Program-made: the position numbers and the translations under genes
Part shown: positions 128 to 16,666 of the stretch, in pieces
Position numbering within the stretch: the stretch's first letter is position 1
Layout: each line of letters starts with the position of its first letter
DNA from: a virus
Direction: 5' to 3' (one strand)
Virus record (IMG/VR): IMGVR_UViG_3300021431_000601
Span: 1 to 16,666 of that record
DNA length: 16,666 bases
The notes under the pieces: generated by a model
The model's input: the letters and a program-made list of their open reading frames with translations, nothing else
Told to the model about the DNA's origin: nothing
The model's database searches: none

Positions 128-274
128 ATGAGATATGTTGTATTAATGAACATGAAGTATTTAAATAGTTTTAGATGTTATGGAGATGCTGTTGATTATA
201 GAGATCATTATCAAAAGAAATATCCAAATAATATTGTAGAGATAATAACATATAATGAATTTAAAGGGAGATAA
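128..274 (+). CDS. Small hypothetical protein (48 aa), not in the supplied ORF track
   Basis: ATG at 128 is preceded by AGAGAGG (111-117). Hand translation gives MRYVVLMNMKYLNSFRCYGDAVDYRDHYQKKYPNNIVEIITYNEFKGR, with stop TAA at 272-274. It is the first ORF after the left promoter. No recognisable family. Confidence 0.3.
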   Translation: MRYVVLMNMKYLNSFRCYGDAVDYRDHYQKKYPNNIVEIITYNEFKGR

Positions 275-278
275 TAAT

Positions 279-482
279 ATGAGTAAAGTTAATATAAGAG
301 CCAAGCAATATTGGAAGTATAAAATTATTGAATATGAATATATAAGTATGAGTCATGGTGATGATGGAGATAAAATAGAAGTATGTAAAACATTACATAA
401 AACTAATAGCAAGTTAATATTCTGGCTAATAAAATTATGTTTAAAATTACAAGGAATTAAATATGAGGTAGTAAATGAATGA
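279..482 (+). CDS. Hypothetical early protein (67 aa)
   Basis: The track ORF is 255..482. ATG at 279 (MSKVNIR...) is preferred because AAGGGAG (264-270) sits 8 nt upstream, whereas ATG 255 has no SD. The stop overlaps the next gene start. Confidence 0.55.
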   Translation: MSKVNIRAKQYWKYKIIEYEYISMSHGDDGDKIEVCKTLHKTNSKLIFWLIKLCLKLQGIKYEVVNE

Positions 483-717
483 TGAAATATTAAAGTATAT
501 ATTAATGATGAAAACATTTAATAGTGAACTTATGGAATTAAATATTAAATACAGTGAACAAATTGAGAAATATAAAGATATTATTCTTGATTTAGAAAAT
601 GAAAGAGATATATTAAAAAGTAAATTATCTGAAACTAAAGCTGATCTACATTATTTATTAGAAAATGGTGAAAGTATTTATATTAGAAATAAATATATTA
701 GAGGTAATAAAGAGTGA
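475..717 (+). CDS. Small helical/coiled-coil early protein (80 aa), ends in ...RGNKE
   Basis: ATG at 475 follows GAGGT (464-468). The sequence is heptad-like and rich in charged residues. It ends in the junction cassette AGAGGTAATAAAGAGTGA (700-717), which overlaps the GTG start of the next gene. Confidence 0.6.
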   Translation: MNDEILKYILMMKTFNSELMELNIKYSEQIEKYKDIILDLENERDILKSKLSETKADLHYLLENGESIYIRNKYIRGNKE

Positions 718-968
718 GATTACAAATACAAAACGATAAAGAATATATAAAAGAATTAGAAAATTATATAGAAATATTAGAACACGAAGAAGATAGATTA
801 AGAGAAAAGTTATTAAACAAAGACAAAGAAATAGAAAGACTAAATAATATCATAAAAGAAGTAAGAGAATATATAGAAAATGGACAGGTTTTTGATATTT
901 CATTAGATAGAGAATTTGCTGTTTTTGATAGAAAAAAACTTTTAGAAATATTAGATAAAGTAGATTAG
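714..968 (+). CDS. Early paralog-family protein (84 aa) with EEDRLREKLLNKDKEIERLNNII module
   Basis: The GTG start overlaps the upstream TGA (GTGA at 714-717). It carries the 71-bp module 786-856, which is identical to 1161-1231. Confidence 0.7.
   Translation: MRLQIQNDKEYIKELENYIEILEHEEDRLREKLLNKDKEIERLNNIIKEVREYIENGQVFDISLDREFAVFDRKKLLEILDKVD
786..856 (+). repeat. 71-bp exact direct repeat, copy 1 (coding)
   Basis: GAAGAAGATAGATTAAGAGAAAAGTTATTAAACAAAGACAAAGAAATAGAAAGACTAAATAATATCATAAA is identical at 786-856 and 1161-1231. A 32-nt core (825-856) recurs at 1200-1231, 1484-1515 (1 mismatch) and 1883-1914 (1 mismatch). Confidence 0.95.
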
Positions 969-977
969 GAGGGTAAT

Positions 978-1337
978 ATGAAAGTAATAGATTTATTAAA
1001 TAAGATAGCAAATGGAGAAGAAGTACCAAAGAAAATAAAATATCATAATAGAATATACATAAAAAGAAGCGATTGCTATAACTATATATTAGAAAATGGT
1101 GGGTTTGATGATGAGTTAAAAGTAATTGTTGGTTGTTTAAATGATGAAGTAGAAATAATAGAAGAAGATAGATTAAGAGAAAAGTTATTAAACAAAGACA
1201 AAGAAATAGAAAGACTAAATAATATCATAAATGAAGCAATAAAATATATAAGAAGTAATGAATGGGGAATTGACTATGAACATAGTAATTGTAGAACTCA
1301 TTTATTAGATATTCTAAAAGGAAGTGATAAAGAGTGA
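978..1337 (+). CDS. Early paralog-family protein (119 aa): unrelated N-terminus + EEDRLREKLLNKDKEIERLNNII + ...ILKGSDKE
   Basis: ATG at 978 follows AGGAGGG (967-973). Contains repeat copy 2. The C-terminal cassette AAAGGAAGTGATAAAGAGTGA (1317-1337) overlaps the next GTG start. Confidence 0.75.
   Translation: MKVIDLLNKIANGEEVPKKIKYHNRIYIKRSDCYNYILENGGFDDELKVIVGCLNDEVEIIEEDRLREKLLNKDKEIERLNNIINEAIKYIRSNEWGIDYEHSNCRTHLLDILKGSDKE
1161..1231 (+). repeat. 71-bp exact direct repeat, copy 2 (coding)
   Basis: Identical to 786-856, and in frame in both host ORFs. Confidence 0.95.
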
Positions 1338-1639
1338 AGTTTGAATACAAAGTTAAATGTAGACATAAATTAGGCTGGAAAGAAATTAAAATTTATGCAG
1401 ATACTGATATTGAGGAGTTTTTTAACAGAAATGGAATTGAATATGTAAGAAACATTACTGACACAATAGAACATAGACAATTAAAAGAAATAGAAAGACT
1501 AAATAACATCATAAACGAATTAGAAAAAACATTATTAGAGTGGCACGAATATTGGGAAGATGATGATAGTTATAGTTGGCAATATAAAAATATTTATGAT
1601 TATTTACAAGAACTAAAAGGAAGTGATAGTAATGAGTGA
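1334..1639 (+). CDS. Early paralog-family protein (101 aa): KEIERLNNIINE core, ...LKGSDSNE tail
   Basis: GTG at 1334 overlaps TGA 1335-1337 and follows AAAGGAAG. Core motif copy at 1484-1515. Confidence 0.7.
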   Translation: MKFEYKVKCRHKLGWKEIKIYADTDIEEFFNRNGIEYVRNITDTIEHRQLKEIERLNNIINELEKTLLEWHEYWEDDDSYSWQYKNIYDYLQELKGSDSNE

Positions 1640-1811
1640 AGAATTATTAAAGTCGTTAGATGAAAAAATACTTGATGAAAAGTTTGAAAAGCTACAAAAA
1701 AATATAGAAAATTATTGTGGAGATTATGGAACGTTAGAAAGTAGATTAGAAGAAACCTTATGGATGATCTTAGATATTCTCAAAGATTTAAAAAAAGGTG
1801 ATAAAGAGTGA
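1632..1811 (+). CDS. Small early protein (59 aa), ...LKKGDKE tail, lacks the KEIERLNNII core
   Basis: The track gives 1623 (GTG). ATG at 1632 (MSEELL...) is preferred: it lies 9 nt downstream of AAAGGAAG (1615-1622) and overlaps the upstream stop (ATGAGTGA). Confidence 0.6.
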   Translation: MSEELLKSLDEKILDEKFEKLQKNIENYCGDYGTLESRLEETLWMILDILKDLKKGDKE

Positions 1812-2032
1812 AAGAAATAGAATTATTAAAAATAATATTCAAAGATAGTCCTGATATTTTAGAACCATTAAATGAAATAGACAAAGAAATAGAAAGATTA
1901 AATAATATCATAAATAAATTATTCGAATATTTAAAAGAAAATAGTAAACAACCTGAATTATTTGAAAGTGATAGATATTACGAAGATATTTTAGATAAAT
2001 TACAAGAGTTGTTAGGAAGTGATAAAGAGTGA
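1808..2032 (+). CDS. Early paralog-family protein (74 aa): DKEIERLNNIINK core, ...LLGSDKE tail
   Basis: GTG at 1808 overlaps TGA 1809-1811 and follows AAGGTGA. Core motif copy at 1883-1914. Confidence 0.7.
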   Translation: MKEIELLKIIFKDSPDILEPLNEIDKEIERLNNIINKLFEYLKENSKQPELFESDRYYEDILDKLQELLGSDKE

Positions 2033-2190
2033 ATAAAATTTACTTATATTTAAGAAATACTGAAAAGAATTTTTCATTCTTCAAATATTTTGATACTGAA
2101 TATGAAAAAGATGAGTTTAAGAGAAAGCTAAAGTTCATTCCTTATCTTATGTTAATTGAGGATTCAACTGATATGATATGGAGTTCTTAA
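2029..2190 (+). CDS. Small hypothetical protein (53 aa), not in the supplied ORF track
   Basis: GTG at 2029 overlaps TGA 2030-2032 in the same GATAAAGAGTGA cassette used by the three preceding junctions. Hand translation gives VNKIYLYLRNTEKNFSFFKYFDTEYEKDEFKRKLKFIPYLMLIEDSTDMIWSS, with stop TAA at 2188-2190. Confidence 0.4.
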   Translation: MNKIYLYLRNTEKNFSFFKYFDTEYEKDEFKRKLKFIPYLMLIEDSTDMIWSS

Positions 2191-2194
2191 TTAA

Positions 2195-2305
2195 CTCACT
2201 ACTTGTTAATAAGTAGTGAGAGTAACAAGTTAACCTCTCGTTACTCTCAGTGCTTATTAGCACTAAAAATAAGGGTGATGACCGACATCAGAACACCTAC
2301 GGGTG
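2195..2305 (+). ncRNA. Structured, relatively GC-rich noncoding element: candidate small RNA (pRNA-like?) or structured 5' leader of the SSB-like gene
   Basis: Five consecutive hairpins. H1: 2195-2204/2211-2220, 10 bp, loop GTTAAT. H2: 2221-2226/2240-2245, extendable to 9 bp in competition with H1, with a 13-nt loop containing GTTAAC and CCTCTC. H3: 2249-2254/2259-2264, loop TATT. H4: 2276-2280/2286-2290. H5: CACC-TACG-GGTG at 2294-2305. I counted 48 G+C in 2191-2310 (40%), visibly above the surrounding sequence. The strand and the boundaries are not established. Confidence 0.4.
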
Positions 2306-2318
2306 AGGAGGAAATTTT

Positions 2319-2774
2319 ATGAATGAAGAAAAAAGAACAGGAGTAAAAAATGCAATAATGGTTACATCAGATATTTTTGGTGAATCAAAAGCTAAAAGAA
2401 TGACATCACTTGATTTAAATGATGAAGAACAAGTTGATATGTTCTTAAATGCTCAAAATGATGCTGATTTTAAGCTAAATGATTGTGCTGGAAAAGTATT
2501 AACTATTATTGGAGCAACTATTGGAGAATATCCAAATGAAACAACTAATGAAGAAACTGGAGAAGTAATTATAAGAAAGAAACATTCACTTTGTTTATTT
2601 GATGAAGATGGAAAGAGTTATGTAACTGGTTCTGGAACTTGTTATTATAGCTTTGCTCAAATAGTAGCACTTAAAGGAATGCCAACAAAGGAATCACCTT
2701 TAAAAATTGAAGTTGTAAAAGTTCCAGCTGAAATTAAAGGACATGAATATTTAAAAGTTAAAATAGCTAAATAA
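2319..2774 (+). CDS. Putative OB-fold single-stranded DNA-binding protein (151 aa); the product assignment is tentative
   Basis: Strong SD GAGGAGG (2305-2311) lies 7 nt before the ATG. The layout (acidic N-terminal part, then KVLTIIGATIGE...ETGEVI...LFDEDGKSYVTGSG...) resembles phage SSBs of Firmicute phages as I remember them. This was not verified by search. The CDS itself is confident; the function is about 0.4. Confidence 0.6.
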   Translation: MNEEKRTGVKNAIMVTSDIFGESKAKRMTSLDLNDEEQVDMFLNAQNDADFKLNDCAGKVLTIIGATIGEYPNETTNEETGEVIIRKKHSLCLFDEDGKSYVTGSGTCYYSFAQIVALKGMPTKESPLKIEVVKVPAEIKGHEYLKVKIAK

Positions 2775-2803
2775 TTGAAAAAATAACCATCTTGTGCTAT
2801 ATA
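2775..2803 (+). promoter_or_regulatory. Internal promoter upstream of the lysis module (extended -10)
   Basis: -35 TTGAAA at 2775-2780, 17-bp spacer, TG at 2795-2796, -10 TATATA at 2798-2803. It is embedded in a long hairpin (2782-2793 / 2813-2824). Confidence 0.5.
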
Positions 2804-2829
2804 TTAGATAGAAAGGTGGTTATTATTTT

Positions 2830-3039
2830 ATGGAAGAATTATTTAAACTTATTGTTGATAATGGATTGGGTATTGGTTCATTTATAGCTCTTTTATATTT
2901 TATATTTACATATGTAAAAGAATTAAATGAAACAATGACAAGAATATCAAACACAATGATCCAGATGCAAATTAATATGGAAAAAATGACAGATAGAATT
3001 GATAAGATAGAAGAAAAGATTAATTTTAAGGAGGTATAA
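2830..3039 (+). CDS. Holin-like protein, BhlA/UviB-type (69 aa)
   Basis: One N-terminal TM segment (GLGIGSFIALLYFIFTYV) is followed by a charged helical tail ending ...DRIDKIEEKINFK. Size and layout match the BhlA/UviB holin-like peptides of Bacillus/Clostridium. It lies upstream of the endolysin. Confidence 0.7.
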   Translation: MEELFKLIVDNGLGIGSFIALLYFIFTYVKELNETMTRISNTMIQMQINMEKMTDRIDKIEEKINFKEV

Positions 3040-3042
3040 TTT

Positions 3043-3246
3043 ATGTTATCAAGAGAAGAGTTAAGATTATTAAATGAAATTTTAGGAGGTTTAGAACTAG
3101 ATGGAGAAAAAGACAAATTAAAAACTAAATTATCATTAATAATTGAACAATTAAACTTAATGGAAAAATCTCAAGAAGAAGTTGCTAAAATACAAGATAA
3201 AATTGTAGCTTTGGATGGTGATAAAGATGAGAAAAAAGAAGATTAA
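3043..3246 (+). CDS. Hypothetical acidic helical protein (67 aa)
   Basis: AAGGAGG (3028-3034) lies 8 nt before ATG 3043. No TM segment and no recognisable family. Confidence 0.65.
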   Translation: MLSREELRLLNEILGGLELDGEKDKLKTKLSLIIEQLNLMEKSQEEVAKIQDKIVALDGDKDEKKED

Positions 3247-3376
3247 AAAAGAAGAAATTAAAGAAGATGTAATTGTTGAAAATGAAGATATTGGAGAAGT
3301 TCTTCCAATAATAGCTGATGAAGATAATCCAGTAAGTGATGGAAAAGAATTTGCTGGAGGTGATGAGGATGAGTAA
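3227..3376 (+). CDS. Possible small overlapping ORF (49 aa, K/E/D-rich), not in the supplied track
   Basis: ATG at 3227 gives MRKKKIKKEEIKEDVIVENEDIGEVLPIIADEDNPVSDGKEFAGGDEDE. It overlaps the 3043 ORF by 20 nt. Its stop (TAA 3374-3376) overlaps the endolysin start (ATGAGTAA), filling an otherwise unexplained 120-nt gap. The SD is weak. Confidence 0.3.
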   Translation: MRKKKIKKEEIKEDVIVENEDIGEVLPIIADEDNPVSDGKEFAGGDEDE

Positions 3377-4097
3377 AACACCACAACAATTTTGTGATAA
3401 AGTATTAGGACATAAATTTGATGAAGATGGTCGTTATGGTTGCCAATGTGTTGATGGATTTAAAACTTGGATAAGAATTGAATTAGGTTTAAATATGGGA
3501 AAAGTTACTTTTTGTTCTCCAACTAATTTAGCAACATCAATTTGGGATAACTTTGAAGAACTAGGACTTGATAAATACTTTGATAAAGTAAGAGCTGATT
3601 CAATGGTTGATGGTGATTGGGCTATATGGGGAATAAAATCAAGAAGTTGTCCATCATCTCATATTGCTATGTTTAGAAAAGATTCTGGAAATAATTTAGG
3701 AATTTTCTTAGGACAAAATCAAAGTAATCATCTAGAATTTACTCAACAAAGAATTTATTATAATGGATTAAGAGGAGGATTAAGACCAAAGATTTATCAT
3801 GAGGAACCAGCACCAACTCCATCAAAAGAGCATCCAATTTATGAAACTTTAGGAGATATGTATGTTAGATGGGATGCATCATATAATGCTGGAATAAAGT
3901 TAGTAAAAGATTTAACTGAGGATGGAAAAAAACATGCAACATCACAAAATCCAAATAGTTATGCTGTTTATAAAAAAGGAACTAGATTCACTTGTTATGA
4001 AACTAAAGACAAAGGATTTGGATTATGGGGAAGAAGTCCATCTGGATGGATTTGTATAAAAGGTAAATCTGGAACAGTTTATTGTAAGGAAGTTTAA
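3369..4097 (+). CDS. Endolysin: N-terminal CHAP domain + C-terminal SH3-like cell-wall-binding domain (242 aa)
   Basis: The CHAP catalytic context is present: GRYGCQCVDGF (Cys) and PSSHIAMF (His). A proline-rich linker (EEPAPTPSKE) follows. The C-terminal region ending ...GLWGRSPSGWICIKG is typical of bacterial SH3 domains. Start moved from 3336 to ATG 3369, which lies 8 nt after GGAGG (3356-3360). Confidence 0.85.
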   Translation: MSKTPQQFCDKVLGHKFDEDGRYGCQCVDGFKTWIRIELGLNMGKVTFCSPTNLATSIWDNFEELGLDKYFDKVRADSMVDGDWAIWGIKSRSCPSSHIAMFRKDSGNNLGIFLGQNQSNHLEFTQQRIYYNGLRGGLRPKIYHEEPAPTPSKEHPIYETLGDMYVRWDASYNAGIKLVKDLTEDGKKHATSQNPNSYAVYKKGTRFTCYETKDKGFGLWGRSPSGWICIKGKSGTVYCKEV

Positions 4098-4717
4098 TGA
4101 GAGCTAATGAACAAAAAATAGCTGCTGATGGATATGAAGTTTGTTTATTTCCATGTGAATGTATGAAATTAAATACTAATAGACCAGAACATGATGTTTA
4201 TGCTTTAGACTTTTTACCAGTAACATCAACTGGAGTTCCAATGACACATATGCCAGTTTATGCTCCATTTACTGGAACAATAGTTTATACTGGAAATGAC
4301 CACAATTGTATTTTACAAAGTAATAGAAAAGTACATACACCAAGTGGATTAAAATATGTTAGAGTTCTAGTTGCTCATAATGACAATCCTCCTCCAGTTG
4401 TAACGACTGAATTTAGACAAGGACAACAATTTTATACTACTGGAAATTATGGATATTCATTTGGAGAACATTTGCATATGGAATATGCTTTAGTTGATAA
4501 TACATCTGATAGATTATGGAATACTGGAGGGATTGGTTTATATAATGGTATTCACATGTGGGATGCTTTATATATAGATGATACATATGTTGTTGCTGGA
4601 GGAAGTTATGATTGGTTAGAATATGGAGAAACACCTCCAATAAAAACATCAAAGAAGAAAAGATTTCCATGGGTATTATATGCTAGGAAGTTTAGAAATA
4701 ATAGAGCAAATGTTTGA
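4097..4717 (+). CDS. M23 (LytM-type) metallopeptidase, 206 aa; second lysin or virion-associated peptidoglycan hydrolase
   Basis: M23-like motifs are present: PVYAPFTGTIVYTG and QGQQFYTTGNYGYSFGEHLHMEY (HxH). An upstream H...D (PEHDVYALDF) is less canonical. The start overlaps the endolysin stop (TAATG). Confidence 0.78.
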   Translation: MRANEQKIAADGYEVCLFPCECMKLNTNRPEHDVYALDFLPVTSTGVPMTHMPVYAPFTGTIVYTGNDHNCILQSNRKVHTPSGLKYVRVLVAHNDNPPPVVTTEFRQGQQFYTTGNYGYSFGEHLHMEYALVDNTSDRLWNTGGIGLYNGIHMWDALYIDDTYVVAGGSYDWLEYGETPPIKTSKKKRFPWVLYARKFRNNRANV

Positions 4718-4732
4718 CATTTGTTCTTTTTT
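4704..4732 (+). terminator. Rho-independent terminator after the lysis module
   Basis: Stem GAGCAAATG (4704-4712) pairs with CATTTGTTC (4718-4726), 9 bp with one G-U. The loop is TTTGA and is followed by TTTTTT (4727-4732). The structure overlaps the TGA stop. Confidence 0.65.
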
Positions 4733-4742
4733 ATTGTATATA
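4714..4742 (+). promoter_or_regulatory. Candidate promoter for the morphogenesis operon
   Basis: Perfect -35 TTGACA at 4714-4719 (inside the terminator loop and right arm), 17-bp spacer, -10 TATATA at 4737-4742. Confidence 0.45.
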
Positions 4743-4763
4743 TAAGACAAGGAGGAGATGCGG

Positions 4764-5054
4764 ATGGCTAAATATAGTGCTGAGGAATTATCAAGTCGAG
4801 TAAATGATCTTGAACTTGATGATGAAGTTAAAATATCTTTAATGGAAGATATTACTGATTCAGTTTCTCCAGATGAATCTGAAGAACTTGCTGGAATTAA
4901 AGCTGAACTTGAAAAAGCTAAAGCTGATTATGAAGAACTAAAAGAAAAATATAAAGCAAGATTTTTAAAAGCTGTTGAATCTGATGAAGAAGAAAAAGAA
5001 GTTGAAGATGAAGATTTAGAAGAAAAAGAAGTTATTGATGTCAAAGAACTATAA
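4764..5054 (+). CDS. Putative scaffolding protein (96 aa)
   Basis: Very acidic and helical (…AELEKAKADYEELKEKYKARF…). It lies immediately upstream of the major capsid gene and is about the size of phi29 gp7. Start moved to ATG 4764, 8 nt after GGAGG (4751-4755). Confidence 0.65.
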   Translation: MAKYSAEELSSRVNDLELDDEVKISLMEDITDSVSPDESEELAGIKAELEKAKADYEELKEKYKARFLKAVESDEEEKEVEDEDLEEKEVIDVKEL

Positions 5055-5071
5055 AAAAGGAGGAATAATAT

Positions 5072-6469
5072 ATGTTAGGACATAATGATGCTGAATTATT
5101 GTCTTTCATAATTAACTCTCAACCAGTTTTAAGAGATAATATTGACCTACCTGTTCAAGGTGAATCAATTGCTCCAATTGGTAAAATTATTGTTAATAAT
5201 GAAAGATACAAAAATGCTTTTATTAATGCTATCAATGTAATTGGTTTAACAATGATTGATAGAAACTATTGGGAAGACCCATGGGAGAATTTTACAAATA
5301 ATGGATATATGAGTTTTGGAGATTCTGCTCGTGAAATGGCTGTTGATATTGCTGATGTATTTGATTACAATACATATGCAACTGATGTTGACCATTTCTT
5401 AGAGAATGTTGTTCCAAATGTTTTAGAATATATTCATCCATTAAATTATCAAAAATTCTACAAAACAACTACTTCAGATACTCAAATGGCTATGGCTTTT
5501 TATAATGAGGGTGGTCTAGTTACTTTAATAGATGAAATTATCTCATCACTTTATGAGGGCTATAAATATGATAAATATATAGTTAATAAGTATATGTTAT
5601 GTAGAAGAATTTTAGATGGTACTGTAACAAGTGTTCAAATAGCTAATTATAATAATTTAACAGCTCGTGAAAGAGTTGCAGCAATGAAGAACATTTCAAA
5701 CTTAATGACATTTAGAAATCCAAATTATAATCCTGCAGGACTTCGAATAGCAACTCCATTCTCTAAACAAATTGCTATTGTTAATACAGATTTTGAAGCT
5801 AGTCTTTCTACTGAAGTTTTAGCAACTTCATTCTTTAGAAATGATGCTGAAATGAAATCTAGAATGGCTCTAATTGATGGTTATGGAAATCATGATGTTG
5901 CTCGTTTAACTGAAGTTTTAGGAGACCAATTCATTCCATTTACTTCAGCTGAATTAGATGCTCTTGCTAATGTTCCAGCAACAATTATTGATAATGAATG
6001 GTTCCAAAATAAAACTTATCGTTTAGATGGAGCTGCTGATACTGATGCCGAAGAAGTATTCACTGAGGGAAATCGTACTGGATTCAAGAGAACAAGTTTC
6101 TATAATCCAGAAACAATGAAGAATAATCATTGGTTACATTATTGGGGAATTAAATCAACTTCACCATTTAAACAAGCTGTTGTATTTACAACTGATACAA
6201 TTGGAGTTACTTCAGTTTCAGTTAGTCCAGCAACAGCAACTATTACAGCTGGTCAAGAATTAAAATTAACTGCATCAGTTGTTACAACTGGATTTGCAAA
6301 TAAGGCTGTTATCTGGAGTGTAGATGATACAAGTGCAGCTGCTGGAGTTACAATCACTCAAGCTGGAGTTCTAAAAGTTCCAGCTGATGCAACTGGAGAA
6401 GTAACAGTTACAGCTACTTCAGTATATGATTCTACTAAATCTAACACAGCAACTATTACTATTGATTAA
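5072..6469 (+). CDS. Major capsid protein with C-terminal Big_2-like Ig domain (465 aa)
   Basis: AAGGAGG lies upstream. It is positioned after the scaffold and before the portal. The C-terminal ~85 aa (VTSVSVSPATATITAGQELKLTASV...VTVTATSVYDSTKSNTATITI) is a typical bacterial Ig-like group 2 domain, as in the phi29 gp8 architecture. A strong terminator follows. Confidence 0.85.
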   Translation: MLGHNDAELLSFIINSQPVLRDNIDLPVQGESIAPIGKIIVNNERYKNAFINAINVIGLTMIDRNYWEDPWENFTNNGYMSFGDSAREMAVDIADVFDYNTYATDVDHFLENVVPNVLEYIHPLNYQKFYKTTTSDTQMAMAFYNEGGLVTLIDEIISSLYEGYKYDKYIVNKYMLCRRILDGTVTSVQIANYNNLTARERVAAMKNISNLMTFRNPNYNPAGLRIATPFSKQIAIVNTDFEASLSTEVLATSFFRNDAEMKSRMALIDGYGNHDVARLTEVLGDQFIPFTSAELDALANVPATIIDNEWFQNKTYRLDGAADTDAEEVFTEGNRTGFKRTSFYNPETMKNNHWLHYWGIKSTSPFKQAVVFTTDTIGVTSVSVSPATATITAGQELKLTASVVTTGFANKAVIWSVDDTSAAAGVTITQAGVLKVPADATGEVTVTATSVYDSTKSNTATITID

Positions 6470-6475
6470 TCCTAT

Positions 6476-6505
6476 AAGGGAGGGAGTTAAAATCCCTCTC
6501 TTTTT
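6476..6505 (+). terminator. Rho-independent terminator/attenuator after the capsid gene
   Basis: Stem AGGGAGGGA (6476-6484) pairs with TCCCTCTCT (6492-6500), 9 bp with one G-U. The loop is GTTAAAA and a T-run extends to 6505. Confidence 0.75.
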
Positions 6506-6528
6506 TAAACTAAGAGAGGAGGAAGATT

Positions 6529-7401
6529 ATGAGAAAAAAATTAATAAATAGTCAGTTAACTAATATGAAAACATATTTAATGTATAGAGAAGAAATGTTA
6601 ACACTTGCTGAAAATGTTTTTGAATTTAAAAATCTTCCAGAGTTTATTGATGTATCATATTTAAATAAAACACTTCTTAGAAATGGTTCAATTGCTTTCT
6701 TTATGGATGATGTATTAGGATTAATTGCACTTCCTTATGATGTAATAGGAAACTTTGATATTTATGGAAGACCACAACAAATTATGTGTAGAGCTGCAAA
6801 TGGTACTTATTACAAACAACTTAATCAAGGAGAATTTGTAATTATGTATGATAATAATGGTCGTTATCCAATCTTTTTAGATATATGTCAGATGGCTGAG
6901 AGAATTGCACTTTCTAAAAGAACAATTGATGTTAATATTGTTCAACAAAGAACCCCTAGAATTTGGAAAACTTCTCAAGATAAAAAGAGAACTTTACAAG
7001 ACATGTTATCAAATATAGATGGAATGGAAGAAAATATTGCTACTTATGAATCAATAGATATTGATGATATGAATGTAGTTTTAGCTCCAGCTCCATTTGT
7101 TGCTGATAAAATAGATCTACATTTAGATAAAGAATGGGCTGAGTTCTATCGTTTAATTGGAGTTGCAAATTTAGTTGAACAGAAAAAAGAGAGAATGATT
7201 AGAGATGAAATGAGTGCATCTCAAGGTGGAACAATAGCAAGTAGATTCTCAAGATTTGAACCTCGTAAAAGAGCAATTGATGAAATCAATAAAAAGTTCG
7301 GAACTAATATTGAAGTGTCATATTATGATGGAGAACCTACAACTGAAGAAGTTAAAGAAATGTTAGAGGAGGTGGAGTTAAATGAGACAGAGAGTTTATA
7401 G
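6529..7401 (+). CDS. Portal / upper collar connector protein (phi29 gp10-like, 290 aa)
   Basis: FEFKNLPEFID and VEQKKERMIRDE correspond to the FEWENLP and LEKKERMVTDE blocks of phi29 gp10 as I recall them. Size and position also fit. Confidence 0.88.
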   Translation: MRKKLINSQLTNMKTYLMYREEMLTLAENVFEFKNLPEFIDVSYLNKTLLRNGSIAFFMDDVLGLIALPYDVIGNFDIYGRPQQIMCRAANGTYYKQLNQGEFVIMYDNNGRYPIFLDICQMAERIALSKRTIDVNIVQQRTPRIWKTSQDKKRTLQDMLSNIDGMEENIATYESIDIDDMNVVLAPAPFVADKIDLHLDKEWAEFYRLIGVANLVEQKKERMIRDEMSASQGGTIASRFSRFEPRKRAIDEINKKFGTNIEVSYYDGEPTTEEVKEMLEEVELNETESL

Positions 7402-8086
7402 AGTATATCCTTTTATAATACCTCCAGCATTTCCAGATTATAATTTACCACCAACACTATATAGGATATTAAATTCATTAGTTAATTATGATGCTCTAGA
7501 ACAAACAAAAATAAAAAATTTAGCAGTGGCTGGAAGAGAAGATATATTTGATTTTGAATATCCTCTATCTTCAAATGTTAATAAGGAAGATTTTGAAGTT
7601 ATGATATTAAATCACTTTCTTATGAGAAGAATTGGTTATGATACAGTTAATGCCTTTAAAATTGCTTTAAATGTTAAAATGAATGAAATTATGCCAATGT
7701 ATAATAAAATGTTTGATATGTTAGAAAATTGGAATATATTTAATGATGGAGAAAGAGTTACAAGAACTGTTACTGATGCTGGAACTAATTCTCTTAATAA
7801 TACTACAACTTCTCAAAATACATCTGATAGAAGATATTCTGATACACCTCAACAACAACTATCAAATGTTAGAGATGGTAAATATATAACTGATTATAAT
7901 TATGATACAGATAATGGAAGTGTTTCTAGTTTATCTAGTGGAACTGATTCAAGAAATACAAGTGAAACTATAATTAGAACACCAAGTGATAAAATGAAAT
8001 TATATAAAGAATTTATTGAAAATAAAAAATCTATAATGACAATGATTTTTGAAGATTTAGAACCATTGTTTTATGGATTAGTATAG
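7382..8086 (+). CDS. Putative lower collar protein (phi29 gp11-like, 234 aa)
   Basis: It immediately follows, and overlaps by 20 nt, the portal gene. GGAGGTGGAG lies upstream. The block ILNHFLMRRIGYDTVNAFK...IMPMYNKMF resembles lower-collar family sequences as I recall them. Not search-verified. Confidence 0.65.
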   Translation: MRQRVYRVYPFIIPPAFPDYNLPPTLYRILNSLVNYDALEQTKIKNLAVAGREDIFDFEYPLSSNVNKEDFEVMILNHFLMRRIGYDTVNAFKIALNVKMNEIMPMYNKMFDMLENWNIFNDGERVTRTVTDAGTNSLNNTTTSQNTSDRRYSDTPQQQLSNVRDGKYITDYNYDTDNGSVSSLSSGTDSRNTSETIIRTPSDKMKLYKEFIENKKSIMTMIFEDLEPLFYGLV

Positions 8087-8099
8087 AGGAGGAATTAAA

Positions 8100-10202
8100 A
8101 TGCAAGGAAATGTAAATATACCAGATTCAACAATTACAACTAATTTAAGTTTTAGACAACTTGTATTAATGAATATGCAACAATTAACTAATTTTCCTTA
8201 TATAGAAAAAGATTTTGATGCTTTAACTGATTATGAATTATTATGTCTAGTTGTTAAATTCTTAAATGATGTAATTGCTAATCAAAATGAACAAAATGAT
8301 TCAATTACTAGAATGTATGAATCATTCTTAGCTTTACAAGATTATGTTAATAATACTAAGGATGAATTAGAAGATGCTTTTAATAATTTGGATGATTATG
8401 TTAGAAATTATTTTGATAACTTAGATGTTCAAGAGGAAATCAACAATAAACTTGATCAAATGTTAGAAGATGGAGTTCTTGAACAAATAATCGAACAATT
8501 TATTCAATCAACTGCTCTTTGGTGTTTTGATAATGTTGCTGAAATGAAATTGGCTACTAATTTAATTAATGGAAGTTATGCAAAAACTTTAGGATATTAT
8601 GAAGTAAACGATGGAGGTTGTTCTACTTATAAAATAACAAATACACAATCACAAACTGAATATCAAGAGCTATTAAATAATGGTTTATATGCTACTTTAA
8701 TTACTAATGGAGAAATAAATGTTAAACAATTGGGAGCCAAAGGAGATGGAGTTACAAATGATGATTTAGCTTTCCAAAAACTTTCTAATATAAATGCTAA
8801 AACAATAAATATTCCATATGGAACATATTTAGTTGAAGCTGTTGCTTTTCCATCTGGAAAAATTAATGGAAATAATTCTACTATTAATTGTTTATTTGAA
8901 ACACAACGATTAACAAATTTTGCAAGTAATAGTATAATTAATAATTTACATATACATTCTTTAAATAATGACAAAGAATGGAATAGAATTGATTTAAGAA
9001 ATAAAAGTTTCATTGAGTTTAATAATTGTAAATTTAGTGGTTTTCAACAACAAGAAGTATCACCAAATGCAAGTGGTTTAAATGTATGGGCTTTATATTT
9101 TAGAGATTGTCATGATATGAGAGTTATTAATTGTGAATTTGAAAATAATAATTTTCAAGATATTATCATTGAATTTAATGTATCTAATTTATATTTTGAA
9201 AATTTACAACGAAATGATGAAATATTTGATGGAGTTGTAGTTGATATTGAACCATCTGAAGAAAATACATGTAAAAACATAACTTTCATAAATTGTAATC
9301 TTAATGATCTAGAAGTATTTGAATATTTTAATACTTTAGATCAAGTTCAAAATGTTAAAATTCTTGATTCAAGAATAGGTAAATTAATGTATCATGGTGG
9401 AGATTTAACAATTGAAAATTGTAAAATTGAAAGTATTGATGCTAATAGTTTTTTACCACATTCAGGAAATTTAAATTTAATTAATTCTGTTAATTTTTCA
9501 AATAATTTAATTACAGATAATTATTTTGCGACTGTAGGAAATCAAACTAATGGTGATTGGATTATGGGATATGTATCAGCATCATGGCTTGATTTTGTAA
9601 ATAGAACAAAAGATAATGAAAATGGTATTGTTCTAAATCTAAACAAAAATAATATAGCTGGTGAATGTATGATTAATTCTAAACCTTTTACTTGCCAACC
9701 TGGTGAAATATATCTTTTAAAAACTTTATGTAAATCAAAGTATCCTTATACAGCTGGAACTCCTATTTCTCAACAAATAGCTATTATGTTTTATAATAGT
9801 AGTGATACTAATTTTGAAACATGGAATGTTTCAATAAATCGTTCAACTAGAGATACTGAAACAAAATTTAAATATTCTAGTAACATATTTAAAATTCCAG
9901 AAAATTGTACTTATTTCAAAATTAGATATAGATGTGAAAATGCATGGTCTAAACATTCATTACATTTAATTAATTCATCTTTATATAAAATAACATGTTC
10001 AACTGATACTAATAATATTGTTGATTTACCTAAAGTAAATAATTTAAAATTTACATTTGATAGTAAACCATCTGATGATAGAAGATACCCTAATTTCTTT
10101 GTAGGTGATACTCTACAATACACAACTCCATCTACATATATTGGTTCAGTATGTACAGTTGATGGTAATACATGGAAAGACTTTGGAAGTTTAGAATCAT
10201 AA
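8100..10202 (+). CDS. Tail appendage / tailspike with right-handed beta-helix (pectate-lyase-like) domain (700 aa)
   Basis: QLGAKGDGVTNDDLAFQKL is the hallmark N-cap motif of pectate-lyase-fold tailspikes, including phi29 gp12. Repeated xNCxF/xNCxI rungs are present (FNNCKFSGF, INCEFENN, INCNLNDL, IENCKIESI). The N-terminal DFDALTDYELLCLVVKFLN block is common in Firmicute phage fibre proteins. Confidence 0.8.
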   Translation: MQGNVNIPDSTITTNLSFRQLVLMNMQQLTNFPYIEKDFDALTDYELLCLVVKFLNDVIANQNEQNDSITRMYESFLALQDYVNNTKDELEDAFNNLDDYVRNYFDNLDVQEEINNKLDQMLEDGVLEQIIEQFIQSTALWCFDNVAEMKLATNLINGSYAKTLGYYEVNDGGCSTYKITNTQSQTEYQELLNNGLYATLITNGEINVKQLGAKGDGVTNDDLAFQKLSNINAKTINIPYGTYLVEAVAFPSGKINGNNSTINCLFETQRLTNFASNSIINNLHIHSLNNDKEWNRIDLRNKSFIEFNNCKFSGFQQQEVSPNASGLNVWALYFRDCHDMRVINCEFENNNFQDIIIEFNVSNLYFENLQRNDEIFDGVVVDIEPSEENTCKNITFINCNLNDLEVFEYFNTLDQVQNVKILDSRIGKLMYHGGDLTIENCKIESIDANSFLPHSGNLNLINSVNFSNNLITDNYFATVGNQTNGDWIMGYVSASWLDFVNRTKDNENGIVLNLNKNNIAGECMINSKPFTCQPGEIYLLKTLCKSKYPYTAGTPISQQIAIMFYNSSDTNFETWNVSINRSTRDTETKFKYSSNIFKIPENCTYFKIRYRCENAWSKHSLHLINSSLYKITCSTDTNNIVDLPKVNNLKFTFDSKPSDDRRYPNFFVGDTLQYTTPSTYIGSVCTVDGNTWKDFGSLES

Positions 10203-16599: not shown

Positions 16600-16666
16600 A
16601 AAATACCATTTTTTAGTACAAATTACACAAACATTAGTACTAGCATAGTAATATCAATGGTATGCG
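16600..16666. repeat. Right inverted terminal repeat (67 bp)
   Basis: Exact reverse complement of 1-67. Confidence 0.97.

Follow-up and report, generated by a model that had tools for sequence, protein, structure and literature searches.

The window, that is the whole stretch of 16,666 nucleotides analysed here, is the complete genome of an uncultured phi29-like phage and contains only one sizeable internal noncoding region. This locus raises the question of the function of the 120-base element which it carries immediately upstream of the gene for a single-stranded-DNA-binding protein (SSB). A preliminary description, made from the letters alone, had offered two readings, a packaging RNA of the phi29 type and a structured leader of the SSB gene; the evidence fits the second and does not support the first. 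The coordinates and strings listed there (H1, H2, the loops, GGGTG, CACCT, the Shine-Dalgarno (SD) sequence and TGATATGAT) were all correct on recheck, as were the noncoding location and the G+C content of the element, 48/120 in a genome at 26.9%. The element is a real, conserved and tightly folded RNA leader located 5' of the SSB gene.

The dense structure, originally described as five hairpins, exceeds what is expected by chance. Region 2185-2318 folds with a minimum free energy (MFE) of -44.5 kcal/mol (z = -5.6) and equally good folds were obtained in 0/200 shuffles. In a sliding scan of the whole + strand the element is the most stable 120-nt stretch (z about -5). Its own 120-nt scan windows reach MFE values of -40.7 and -34.6 (z of -4.5 and -5.1), those of the remaining top-z windows among those listed being -25.4 or higher. 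A cmscan search against Rfam gave no relevant match over the whole window (both strands, E<=10) and zero matches in 13 relatives (E<=1). The tRNA/tmRNA scans found none and ARAGORN likewise no tRNA. The leader RNA is a member of no described RNA family. No further copies were found in the genome: the covariance model (CM) of its distal module (see below) gives a single match, on the + strand, and a descriptor scan yielded one unrelated match (6199-6291), shuffled genomes averaging 0.05 hits. The leader motif likewise does not occur in any of about 186,000 species genomes of bacteria and archaea; elsewhere it was found only in the same viral contigs and only upstream of SSB. Neither megablast and blastn searches of INPHARED nor tblastn with the SSB identified cultured relatives, and PolB identity to cultured phages is 37% or lower.

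The element is intercistronic. It lies between a small ORF (2029-2190, + strand) and the SSB gene (2319-2774, + strand), upstream of a terminator at 4703-4727. The SSB gene encodes a phi29-type protein of 151 aa which matches PHROG 6243 (E 6.6e-16) and the Pfam profile PF17427 (Phi29_Phage_SSB; 24.8 bits, slightly below the 25-bit cutoff), and for which 235 homologues were collected. The nearest good promoter is a promoter-like site at the left end (71-99, + strand), TTGACT-17-GATAAT preceded by a TG, located 2.1 kb from the element. Transcription of the RNA carrying the element probably starts there. No conserved promoter adjoining the element was found in the clade of the window. The extended -10 TGATATGAT (2169-2177), suggested earlier as a possible start of transcription, falls within the upstream ORF and is not retained in relatives with a different flank (L003, L008). 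In some relatives an HTH protein is encoded just upstream.

The element is composed of a distal module (2195-2264) and a proximal H4-H5-SD block (2265-2311), both on the + strand. The distal module includes three hairpins. H1 (2195-2204/2211-2220; stem CTCACTACTT/AAGTAGTGAG, loop GTTAAT) has an 8-bp core (2197-2204/2211-2218) common to the relatives. H2 (core 2221-2226/2240-2245, feature 2217-2249) exposes a 13-nt loop, AAGTTAACCTCTC, with GTTAAC at 2229-2234 and, as already recognized in the preliminary description, shares GAG with H1, so that it can be extended to 2217-2226/2240-2249. H3 (AGTGCT-TATT-AGCACT, 2249-2264; GUGCU...AGCAC in the RNA) is the hairpin of the module with the most conserved sequence. 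H1, H2 and H3 adjoin with linkers of 0-1 nt and their topology is that of a nicked three-way junction.

This arrangement is retained in the relatives, metagenomic contigs retrieved through SSB homology. An automatic detector found triple hairpins in the upstream regions of 17/25 of them, 0.05 being expected from shuffles. H1 stems have unrelated sequences at the same position (e.g. GCTACC/GGTAGC, GTGCAACTT/AAGTTGCAC or TTATCAA/TTGATAG) and the H3 stem variants retain pairing (GGTATTC/GAATACT, GTGTC/GACAC, GGTGTTA/TAACACC). H2 is supported by covariation, five of its pairs being changed on both sides across 7 close relatives. In other relatives, the length of its apex is hypervariable, from 13 to >100 nt. 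The CCTCTC end of the H2 loop, in which a complement of the SD had been seen, is conserved only in the closest subclade and its match to the SD amounts to 4-5 bp. H2 loops are C/U-rich and poor in G, and in two lineages their insertions carry a tRNA T-arm-like GGTTCGATTCC. The relatives possess 1 to 4 tandem copies of the module, and the modules within one array are not sequence repeats; L021 lacks H1 and L027 is reduced to two hairpins. MAFFT failed on the divergent modules, and the H1/H3 statistics given below were obtained with custom scripts from a hand-curated table checked against the sequences.

A second pairing scheme, overlooked in the preliminary description, involves the apex of H1 and H3. 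In this fold B, positions 2204-2215 pair with 2251-2262 (+ strand; 12 bp including 2 G·U) and stack on H2, resulting in one quasi-continuous helix of 24 bp that excludes both H1 and H3. Fold B is the MFE structure in the window and the RNAalifold consensus of 7 relatives. The complementarity between the H1 apex and H3 is present in every curated module and is stronger between cognate partners than after permutation (6.96 vs 4.86; 0/5000 permutations, and 0/2000 in a second test). It provides a helix of 20-36 bp in 22/22 modules, where H2 alone is mostly of 8-14 bp; in the two relatives that lack H1, H2 is 19 bp long. The energies of fold B and of the local fold A are close (-33.1 vs -30.3). 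The module therefore has two mutually exclusive folds, three hairpins or a single 20-36-bp helix. Alternatively, the H1/H3 complementarity could correspond to a tertiary kissing contact, which nearest-neighbour folding cannot separate from an alternative helix. The loop-loop contact proposed initially was a different one, between H1 and H2. The complementary run of 6 observed here falls to 3 in the close relatives L019 and L033, and across 22 modules the H1/H2 loops score 4.73 vs 4.63 permuted (673/2000), which is no better than chance.

The asymmetric distribution of its G·U pairs, 80 on the + strand vs 22 on the - strand, places the structure on the + (mRNA-sense) strand. Folding is better on the + strand in 20/22 modules (mean -34.4 vs -27.8 kcal/mol; Wilcoxon p = 7e-5). 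This bears on the idea of a DNA-level signal in which the nested inverted repeats would serve as protein-binding palindromes or as a cruciform (operator, replication or packaging signal). Every hairpin is indeed an inverted repeat in the duplex, and an HTH protein is encoded just upstream in some relatives. However, each G·U pair of the + strand corresponds to an A·C mismatch on the -, 20/22 modules are more stable on the +, the module CM match at 2195-2264 scores 99 bits on the + and 38 bits on the -, and pairing is conserved where stem sequences are not, the reverse of the pattern of a protein operator. We regard a signal of this type as hardly credible, a DNA palindrome being rejected by the strand asymmetry. 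Formally, displaced + strand ssDNA could still be the carrier of the fold.

The element is associated with SSB rather than with its upstream neighbours. All relatives examined carry it directly before the SSB gene, whatever lies upstream, and it is kept there even when the upstream flank is unrelated (L003). In distant clades, SSB is the first gene behind a promoter with an 11/12 consensus match, and the element is retained in that position. From H3 to the SD, leader identity is 73-97% vs 61-80% at third codon positions, so that the leader is more conserved than synonymous sites.

The proximal block begins with an A-rich single-stranded linker, AAAAATAAGGG (2265-2275, + strand), whose GGG is invariant in the alignment. 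It is followed by H4 (TGATG-ACCGA-CATCA, 2276-2280/2286-2290, + strand), in which compensatory changes on both sides affect 3/5 pairs; pairing is kept in 97.8% of cells, and the covariation score is reached by 0/500 shuffles. H5 (CACC-TACG-GGTG, 2294-2297/2302-2305, + strand) is paired in 100% of cells, with a compensated CAGC/GCTG in L010, and is, as claimed before, a TACG-loop hairpin abutting the SD. The latter (GAGGAGG, 2305-2311) is followed by a 7-nt spacer and the SSB ATG at 2319 (whole feature 2305-2321, + strand). The alternative pairing of either GGGUG (2273-2277, 2301-2305) with CACCU (2294-2298), also put forward earlier, is broken by variation in the relatives. The H4-H5-SD block is conserved in sequence, including the loops ACCGA and TACG, with invariant GGG and CC, and differs between SSB clades. 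Of the 55 nt before the ATG, only the 11-nt A-rich linker and the 7-nt spacer are unpaired. H5 leaves GGAGG free and a simple structural on/off switch of translation is not visible.

A block of this kind might be an autogenous translational operator, to which the SSB or some other early phage protein would bind at H4, H5, the linker and the SD. Binding, perhaps with the module as its site of nucleation, would repress translation when free protein accumulates. The position directly before the SSB gene agrees with this, the sequence conservation of H4-H5-SD down to its loops suggests specific recognition, and the block changes between SSB clades. A precedent exists in T4, where the leader of the SSB gene 32 is an operator bound by gp32 (PMC535899). 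As in T4 and RB69, the element is a structured and conserved 5' leader directly before a phage SSB gene in a polycistronic early region, with a folded 5' part followed by the ribosome-binding region (PMC535899). The T4 operator consists of one H-type pseudoknot of ~28 nt and of >40 nt of unstructured UUAAA/UAAA repeats spanning the ribosome-binding site (PMC535899). Here, 1 to 4 bistable three-hairpin modules precede two further hairpins reaching the SD, and the space left unstructured in T4 is occupied by these two covariation-supported hairpins. The SSB families are unrelated (PF17427 here, distinct from gp32), binding of the SSB to its leader is putative, and tandem modules of variable number and sequence are left unexplained. 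The gene 32 analogy drawn in the preliminary description is retained for the position of the leader and abandoned for the detail of the operator, a long unstructured UUAAA tract being absent. We know of no autoregulation by phi29 p5. We consider autogenous repression rather unlikely as the principal function of the leader.

An SSB-gene leader is indicated jointly by the phi29-type SSB, the position of the element in the relatives, the mRNA-sense fold and a conservation above that of synonymous sites; as far as sequence can tell, its most likely targets are processing, stability and translation of the SSB messenger. Our preferred explanation, to which we give a probability of about one half, is a cis-acting and post-transcriptional structured 5' leader of the SSB mRNA which would combine a bistable processing and end-capping module with a translation-initiation block. 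The data shown above establish the structure, its conservation and strand, its association with SSB and the existence of two folds, whereas nuclease, capping, ribosome trigger and any consequence for expression are inferred. The module is bistable, either as local H1-H2-H3 or with the H1 apex zipped onto H3, which lengthens H2 to at least 20 bp. The extended helix may be an RNase III-type processing site whose cleavage would separate the SSB message from the upstream early ORFs. After cleavage, H1 and H3 could re-form as terminal hairpins, one at the 3' end of the upstream RNA and the other at the 5' end of the SSB mRNA, and so cap both against exonucleases, e.g. RNase J1. H1 would be melted, and the extended form favoured, by a ribosome that terminates at the upstream stop codon, which is located within H1 or 0-6 nt before it. 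Finally, H4-H5-SD would hold the ribosome-binding site in a fixed and open context and may double as a protein operator. The stop codon of the upstream ORF (2188-2190) ends 6 nt before the H1 core, so that the 5' arm of H1 would be covered by a ribosome during termination, and in 16/19 loci the upstream stop codon ends -6 to +13 nt relative to the H1 start. Some observations fit less easily. A plain long hairpin would suffice if only long dsRNA were needed; the conservation of the H1 5' arm thus requires an extra "capping" or "switch" assumption. The ribosome trigger would also be unusable in clades which have a promoter in place of the upstream ORF.

Parts of this scheme resemble known systems. 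Phage intercistronic RNase III sites are known, the example cited in PMC4838370 being SP82. Like the T7 R-sites and those of SP82, the element is intercistronic in an early transcript and has the potential for roughly two or more turns of dsRNA (24 bp with a 1x1 internal loop), and cleavage of the putative site would leave hairpins at the ends of the products. It differs in that its long helix competes with the conserved local hairpins H1 and H3. To our knowledge, no built-in alternative fold of this kind has been reported for the T7 and SP82 sites, and a logic in which an RNA is cut and then refolds into two end-caps has not been described before. Folded RNAs can block RNase J1, as a flaviviral xrRNA does in vitro (PMC5760640). 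The element shares with the xrRNAs of flaviviruses and plant viruses a compact multi-helix fold, long-range pairing, tandem copies and a location 5' of the RNA to be protected. However, its long-range pairing joins two hairpin apices and not the 5' end, and there is no Rfam xrRNA match. In xrRNAs, a three-way junction and a pseudoknot build a ring through which the 5' end is threaded, and this fold stalls 5'-3' exonucleases. If the preferred reading is correct, the element would represent an undescribed family of structured phage RNAs, a modular and bistable leader of variable copy number governing a protein needed in very large amounts in protein-primed replication. It would add to T4 gene 32 a second and independent case in which an SSB gene has its own dedicated region of RNA control, here of a different design, and could supply compact, orthogonal parts to insulate and stabilise cistrons in Gram-positive hosts.

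The alternative pairings also recall bistable switches such as trp-type attenuators and hok: the H1 apex and 3' arm can pair with an upstream or a downstream partner, and the upstream ORF ends at the first hairpin, so that a ribosome could choose the fold. This would be compatible with a transcription attenuator or antiterminator in which H1 would serve as anti-antiterminator, H1-apex:H3 as antiterminator and H3 as terminator, together setting the level of transcription into SSB and the genes behind it; in a variant, the RNA would modify RNA polymerase in the manner of HK022 put. The 1:2 / 2:3 / 3:4 topology of alternative pairings does exist and the upstream stop codon abuts H1. Moreover, the last hairpin of the distant clades is followed by a U tract and is terminator-like, ~40 nt before SSB and ~200 nt past the consensus promoter. 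In these promoter-bearing clades it points to attenuation. The sequence behind H3 is A-rich and not U-rich in the window and its clade; no + strand terminator was found at 2264-2318, between the element and the SSB ATG, and no visibly controlled terminator or SD is present. In addition, the terminator at 4703-4727 embeds the TTGACA-17-TATATA promoter of the structural genes, an arrangement conserved in relatives. With a promoter of their own, these genes do not require processive antitermination or read-through of terminators, which weakens the put-type reading. Control of transcription by the element appears improbable.

The packaging RNA remains to be weighed. It would be a nicked, circularly permuted three-way junction whose H1 and H3 apices pair between molecules to form a ring on the portal and scaffold the gp16-type ATPase. 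The genome does encode, as stated originally, a gp16-type ATPase and a gp10-type portal (connector). The element also shares with phi29 pRNA its occurrence in a phi29-like phage, a size of roughly 70-120 nt, three helices which may meet at one point (here with 0-1-nt linkers), two apical regions (H1 and H3) with covarying Watson-Crick complementarity, and a structure kept among relatives of low sequence conservation. It occupies the one sizeable noncoding region inside this complete genome and, in distant clades, the structured RNA is close to the left end, with a strong promoter before it and the terminator-like hairpin at its end. The complementarity between the H1 apex and H3, loop-loop in style, leaves room for a self-associating RNA.

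The phi29 pRNA is a separate small transcript from an early promoter near the genome end, has a 3' end of its own and binds the prohead connector, and DNA packaging depends on it; its 5' and 3' ends pair to give helix A, which binds the ATPase and has a CCA bulge. Unlike this RNA, the element is located in the SSB 5' UTR without a separate gene, and lacks helix A. A closing helix from its 5' and 3' ends, whose absence had been conceded from the start, is found neither in the MFE nor in the centroid or RNAalifold consensus structures. The pRNA model RF00044 has no match in the whole window on both strands (E<=10), either at the candidate or, in agreement with the preliminary description, elsewhere in the genome, nor in 13 relatives (E<=1). 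In the window, the element is 2.1 kb past the promoter, has no terminator of its own and runs directly into the SSB ribosome-binding site. Its copy number varies from 1 to 4, L021 has no H1 and L027 only two hairpins. The 7-12-nt complementarity includes stem bases and can be satisfied within one molecule, as in the MFE, modules of one array bear different "addresses", and the H1/H2 loop pair initially proposed shows no covariation. pRNA has been reported only in Bacillus phi29-like phages, and the ATPase rings of asccphi28 form alone (PMC7823558, PMC11476376). We find a packaging RNA highly improbable. There is a correspondingly slim chance that the three-hairpin modules constitute a new class of self-pairing phage RNA, a circularly permuted three-way junction with "addressed" apices that serves as a trans-acting motor scaffold in non-Bacillus phi29-like phages; on that reading they would be a structural analogue of pRNA missed by CM searches. 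The question of pRNA outside Bacillus is narrowed by this complete genome, which has no classical pRNA and whose sole structured noncoding RNA is tied to SSB expression.

The variable number of modules (1 to 4) and the hypervariable H2 apices could also suggest a trans-acting or decoy RNA, the modules being released as small stable RNAs which sponge or mimic a host factor (nuclease, defence protein or tRNA-binding enzyme). The T-arm-like GGTTCGATTCC of the H2 insertions in two lineages and the G-poor, C/U-rich H2 loops would agree with such a role. However, ARAGORN detected no tRNA and Rfam no match, the modules of an array are not sequence repeats, and modules are seen only upstream of SSB, the motif being absent from the ~186,000 bacterial and archaeal species genomes. 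A decoy is quite improbable.

Downstream of the leader, a hairpin at the 3' end of the SSB cistron sequesters the SD of the following gene, an arrangement that fits differential expression within the operon.

The 120-nt stretch directly ahead of the SSB gene (2191-2310, + strand) has, in our estimate, about an even chance of serving the SSB mRNA as a cis-acting 5' leader. The genome that carries it is complete and linear (16,666 bp) and phi29-like, as judged from perfect 67-bp inverted terminal repeats (1-67 and 16600-16666), and its gene set is of the phi29-like podovirus type. A rightward block (255-10202, +) carries small ORFs, the SSB gene (2319-2774, +), a holin-like gene, lysins, the capsid gene, a gp10-type connector and tail genes. 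The leftward block (16553 to 10232, -) includes the terminal protein, PolB, a gp16-type ATPase and a tail gene. No close relative was found among 50,697 deposited phage genomes, where no PolB is more than 37% identical to that of the window; the phage is therefore known from metagenomic contigs only. Promoter-like sites lie just inside both ends (71-99, +; 16595-16567, -). The left one (TTGACT-17-GATAAT with TG) is the probable start of the unit carrying the element and a terminator-like structure at 4703-4727 (+) ends it, which places the element inside one transcription unit. This terminator is a stem followed by a T run 3' of the lysin gene; its loop and 3' arm contain TTGACA (4714-4719), after which come a 17-nt spacer and TATATA (4737-4742). 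The terminator with its embedded promoter (4703-4742) sits directly 5' of the structural genes, and the same arrangement occurs in L031, L033, L034, L039, L041 and L046, metagenomic relatives retrieved through SSB homology. The small overlapping early ORFs at 475-2032 are mutual paralogues: four have the motif KEIERLNNII in common, and a terminal (D/N)KE is seen in five, as GSDKE in three of them. They matched no known family, and the small-ORF sets at this position differ among relatives.

Coordinates and strings in the preliminary description of the element were all correct, as was its G+C count (48/120; genome 26.9%). The dense structure that it described is borne out: 2185-2318 has an MFE of -44.5 kcal/mol (z = -5.6) and 0/200 shuffles fold as well. 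Scanning the + strand in 120-nt segments put the genome's energy minima at 2161-2280 (-34.6, z = -5.1) and 2201-2320 (-40.7, z = -4.5), and only the bidirectional terminator near 10200 had a lower z.

Metagenomic protein collections contain 235 homologues of the SSB, and DNA was fetched around about 40 of them (SSB identity 99% down to 42%). In the relative L003, sequence upstream of position 2196 is unrelated to the window while the 115 nt from the first hairpin to the SD are essentially the same, with one loop substitution and one indel. Across the clade, leader identity from the third hairpin to the SD is 73-97% versus 61-80% at SSB third codon positions, indicating purifying selection on this noncoding stretch. 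In distant clades SSB is the first gene after an 11/12-consensus promoter (TTGACA-17-TATACT), with a structured leader of about 200 nt in between; there the region is thus transcribed in the SSB direction. The structured leader that had been offered as a second reading is linked to SSB across relatives. The leader motif was not found in species genomes of bacteria and archaea (about 186,000). The distant clades (L027, L029, L031 and L047-L052) have a conserved box in common, CCATATAA(T/A), which lies 30-45 nt ahead of the SSB ATG and separates the SD from the terminator-like last hairpin of the structured RNA; a second promoter -10 and a signal acting in the RNA are both possible roles.

The proximal part (2265-2311, +) comprises an A-rich linker, in which a GGG is invariant, H4 (2276-2290, +; TGATG-ACCGA-CATCA), H5 (2294-2305, +; CACC-TACG-GGTG) and the SD. 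Among 18 distinct sequences, 98.8% of H4 and H5 cells are paired and 12 show double-sided changes. The covariation score was reached by 0/500 column shuffles, and pairing collapses once partner columns are slid. The same variation breaks the alternative GGGUG:CACCU helix that had been suggested. H5 does not occlude the SD (GGAGG, 2307-2311). T4 gene 32 already provides an example of this kind of element, a phage SSB gene with a structured control leader, and the logic of that autogenous operator is common to both. However, the T4 operator is defined by an unstructured UUAAA tract (PMC535899), where the element has two hairpins instead, and an autogenous operator of the T4 style is unlikely here. 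The element is a new design of tandem, addressable, bistable three-hairpin modules and a two-hairpin block adjoining the SD.

The distal part (2195-2264, +) is formed by three abutting hairpins, H1 (2195-2220), H2 (2217-2249) and H3 (2249-2264), with 0-1-nt linkers. Relatives keep this arrangement despite quite different sequences, in one, two, three or four tandem modules. A triple-hairpin detector found at least one module in 17/25 upstream regions (0.05 expected from dinucleotide shuffles); its miss of the window's own module is attributed to a 4-nt overlap of the maximal H1 and H2 helices, beyond its tolerance. With five close sequences as its input, a covariance model has exactly one + strand match in the genome, at 2195-2264 (99 bits). 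A descriptor scan gave one other triple-hairpin match, at 6199-6291 inside the capsid gene (background about 0.05 per shuffled genome), but it is no match to the covariance model. In L040-L045 the noncoding stretch ahead of SSB extends to about 550-700 nt (e.g. 1950-2500 in L043). These leaders hold three full modules and a reduced one; every module has an H1-apex/H3 address of its own, and a gene for an HTH-domain protein lies a little upstream.

Some modules carry a homologous insertion at the H2 apex, TATTCCAAAACTAAGAC.CTGG... (L037 ~545-615, L048 ~265-335, L051 ~120-190), that ends in a tRNA T-arm-like hairpin with GGTTCGATTCC and is found in two separate SSB clades. No tRNA was called there by ARAGORN, and Rfam gave no match for L037. 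These insertions and the variable copy number might suggest a trans-acting or decoy RNA, a very unlikely reading that nothing else supports.

The H1 apex (loop and start of the 3' arm) is complementary to H3 (in the window, 2204-2215 with 2251-2262), and the partners change together across relatives: L043 module 3 (UUUCAUAA and UUAUGAAA), L043 module 4 (UUUUUUGA and UCAAAAGA), L023 (CUUUUUGG and CUAAAAAG), L012 (UCUUUU and AAAAGA), L039 (UGUUUAUA and UAUAAACA) and L056 module 1 (UAAAU and AUUUA). Mean runs are 6.96 for cognate versus 4.86 ± 0.25 for permuted partners (0/5000), and duplex energies -11.1 versus -7.1 kcal/mol (0/5000); with loops ±1 nt only, runs are 5.45 versus 3.86 (0/2000). 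Addresses differ among modules of one array. This complementarity implies two mutually exclusive folds, A (three local hairpins) and B (H1 apex paired with H3, H2 extended). Most sequences have fold B as their MFE, and RNAalifold gives it as consensus for the close clade, where one-sided changes are absorbed as G·U; on average it is near fold A in energy (-33.1 vs -30.3). The basal stems of H1 and H3 covary too, so both folds appear to be maintained; H2 has five compensatory double-changed pairs among seven close relatives. A tertiary kissing contact in place of full strand exchange would look alike to folding and permutation methods.

Such alternative pairings, and the terminator-like last hairpins of distant clades, would suit an attenuator. 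However, in the window clade the sequence 3' of H3 is A-rich, and the terminator at 4703-4727 gives the structural genes a promoter of their own; attenuation is improbable. The pairing of H1 and H2 loops, proposed earlier as pRNA-like, does exist in the window (run of 6) but is lost in L019 and L033 (run of 3); across modules it shows no excess over permutation (4.73 vs 4.63), which rules it out as a conserved feature. The meeting of three helices at one point, the covariation of complementary apices and the position in the only internal noncoding region do recall a pRNA. Yet the element matched no Rfam family, pRNA included (window at E<=10, 13 relatives at E<=1), there is no helix A or separate gene, and pRNA is not seen outside Bacillus phages (PMC7823558, PMC11476376); a packaging role is highly improbable. 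In L029 and L031 the module order is permuted (a GUGCU...AGCAC hairpin, a long hairpin, a third hairpin), with complementary first and third apices (AUUAG/CUAAU; UAUUAA/UUAAUA).

The + strand folds more stably in 20/22 modules (mean -34.4 vs -27.8 kcal/mol; Wilcoxon p = 7e-5), and MFE structures contain 80 G·U pairs on + versus 22 on -, indicating selection of the structure in a single strand of mRNA sense. Protein-bound duplex palindromes do not fit this asymmetry, which also makes a DNA-level signal extremely unlikely.

For the cis-acting leader we propose a specific cut-and-cap mechanism, more tentatively, at roughly half the credence of the general statement. The structure, its conservation, its strand, its tie to SSB and its two folds are what the data show; nuclease, capping, ribosome trigger and effect on expression belong to the proposal. 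We picture the module as a bistable cassette for processing and stability. RNase III substrates measure about two helical turns, and classical intercistronic RNase III sites occur in T7 early mRNAs. The quasi-continuous fold B duplex has 24 bp in the window and always 20-36 bp; H2 alone has mostly 8-14 bp, and 19 bp in two relatives without H1. An RNase III-type enzyme could cut this extended form, after which each of the two products would be capped by a re-formed terminal hairpin, H1 or H3. H3 would shield the SSB message, at its 5' end, against 5'-3' decay and might thereby affect expression. Intercistronic RNase III sites are likewise described for early mRNAs of phage SP82, as cited in PMC4838370. 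The upstream ORF stop ends -6 to +13 nt from the H1 start in 16/19 loci, and inside the H1 loop in four or five loci, so that a terminating ribosome would have to open H1; this might free the H1 apex for H3. The H4-H5-SD block would serve as the translation-initiation region and possibly as a protein operator.

Just 3' of the SSB stop lies a 12-bp hairpin (2782-2793/2813-2824; -16.7 kcal/mol, z = -3.5). The holin-like gene that comes next (ATG 2830) has its SD, AAGGTGG, buried in this hairpin, which fits an operon needing far more SSB than its neighbours. A U-rich stretch follows this hairpin (region 2776-2830).
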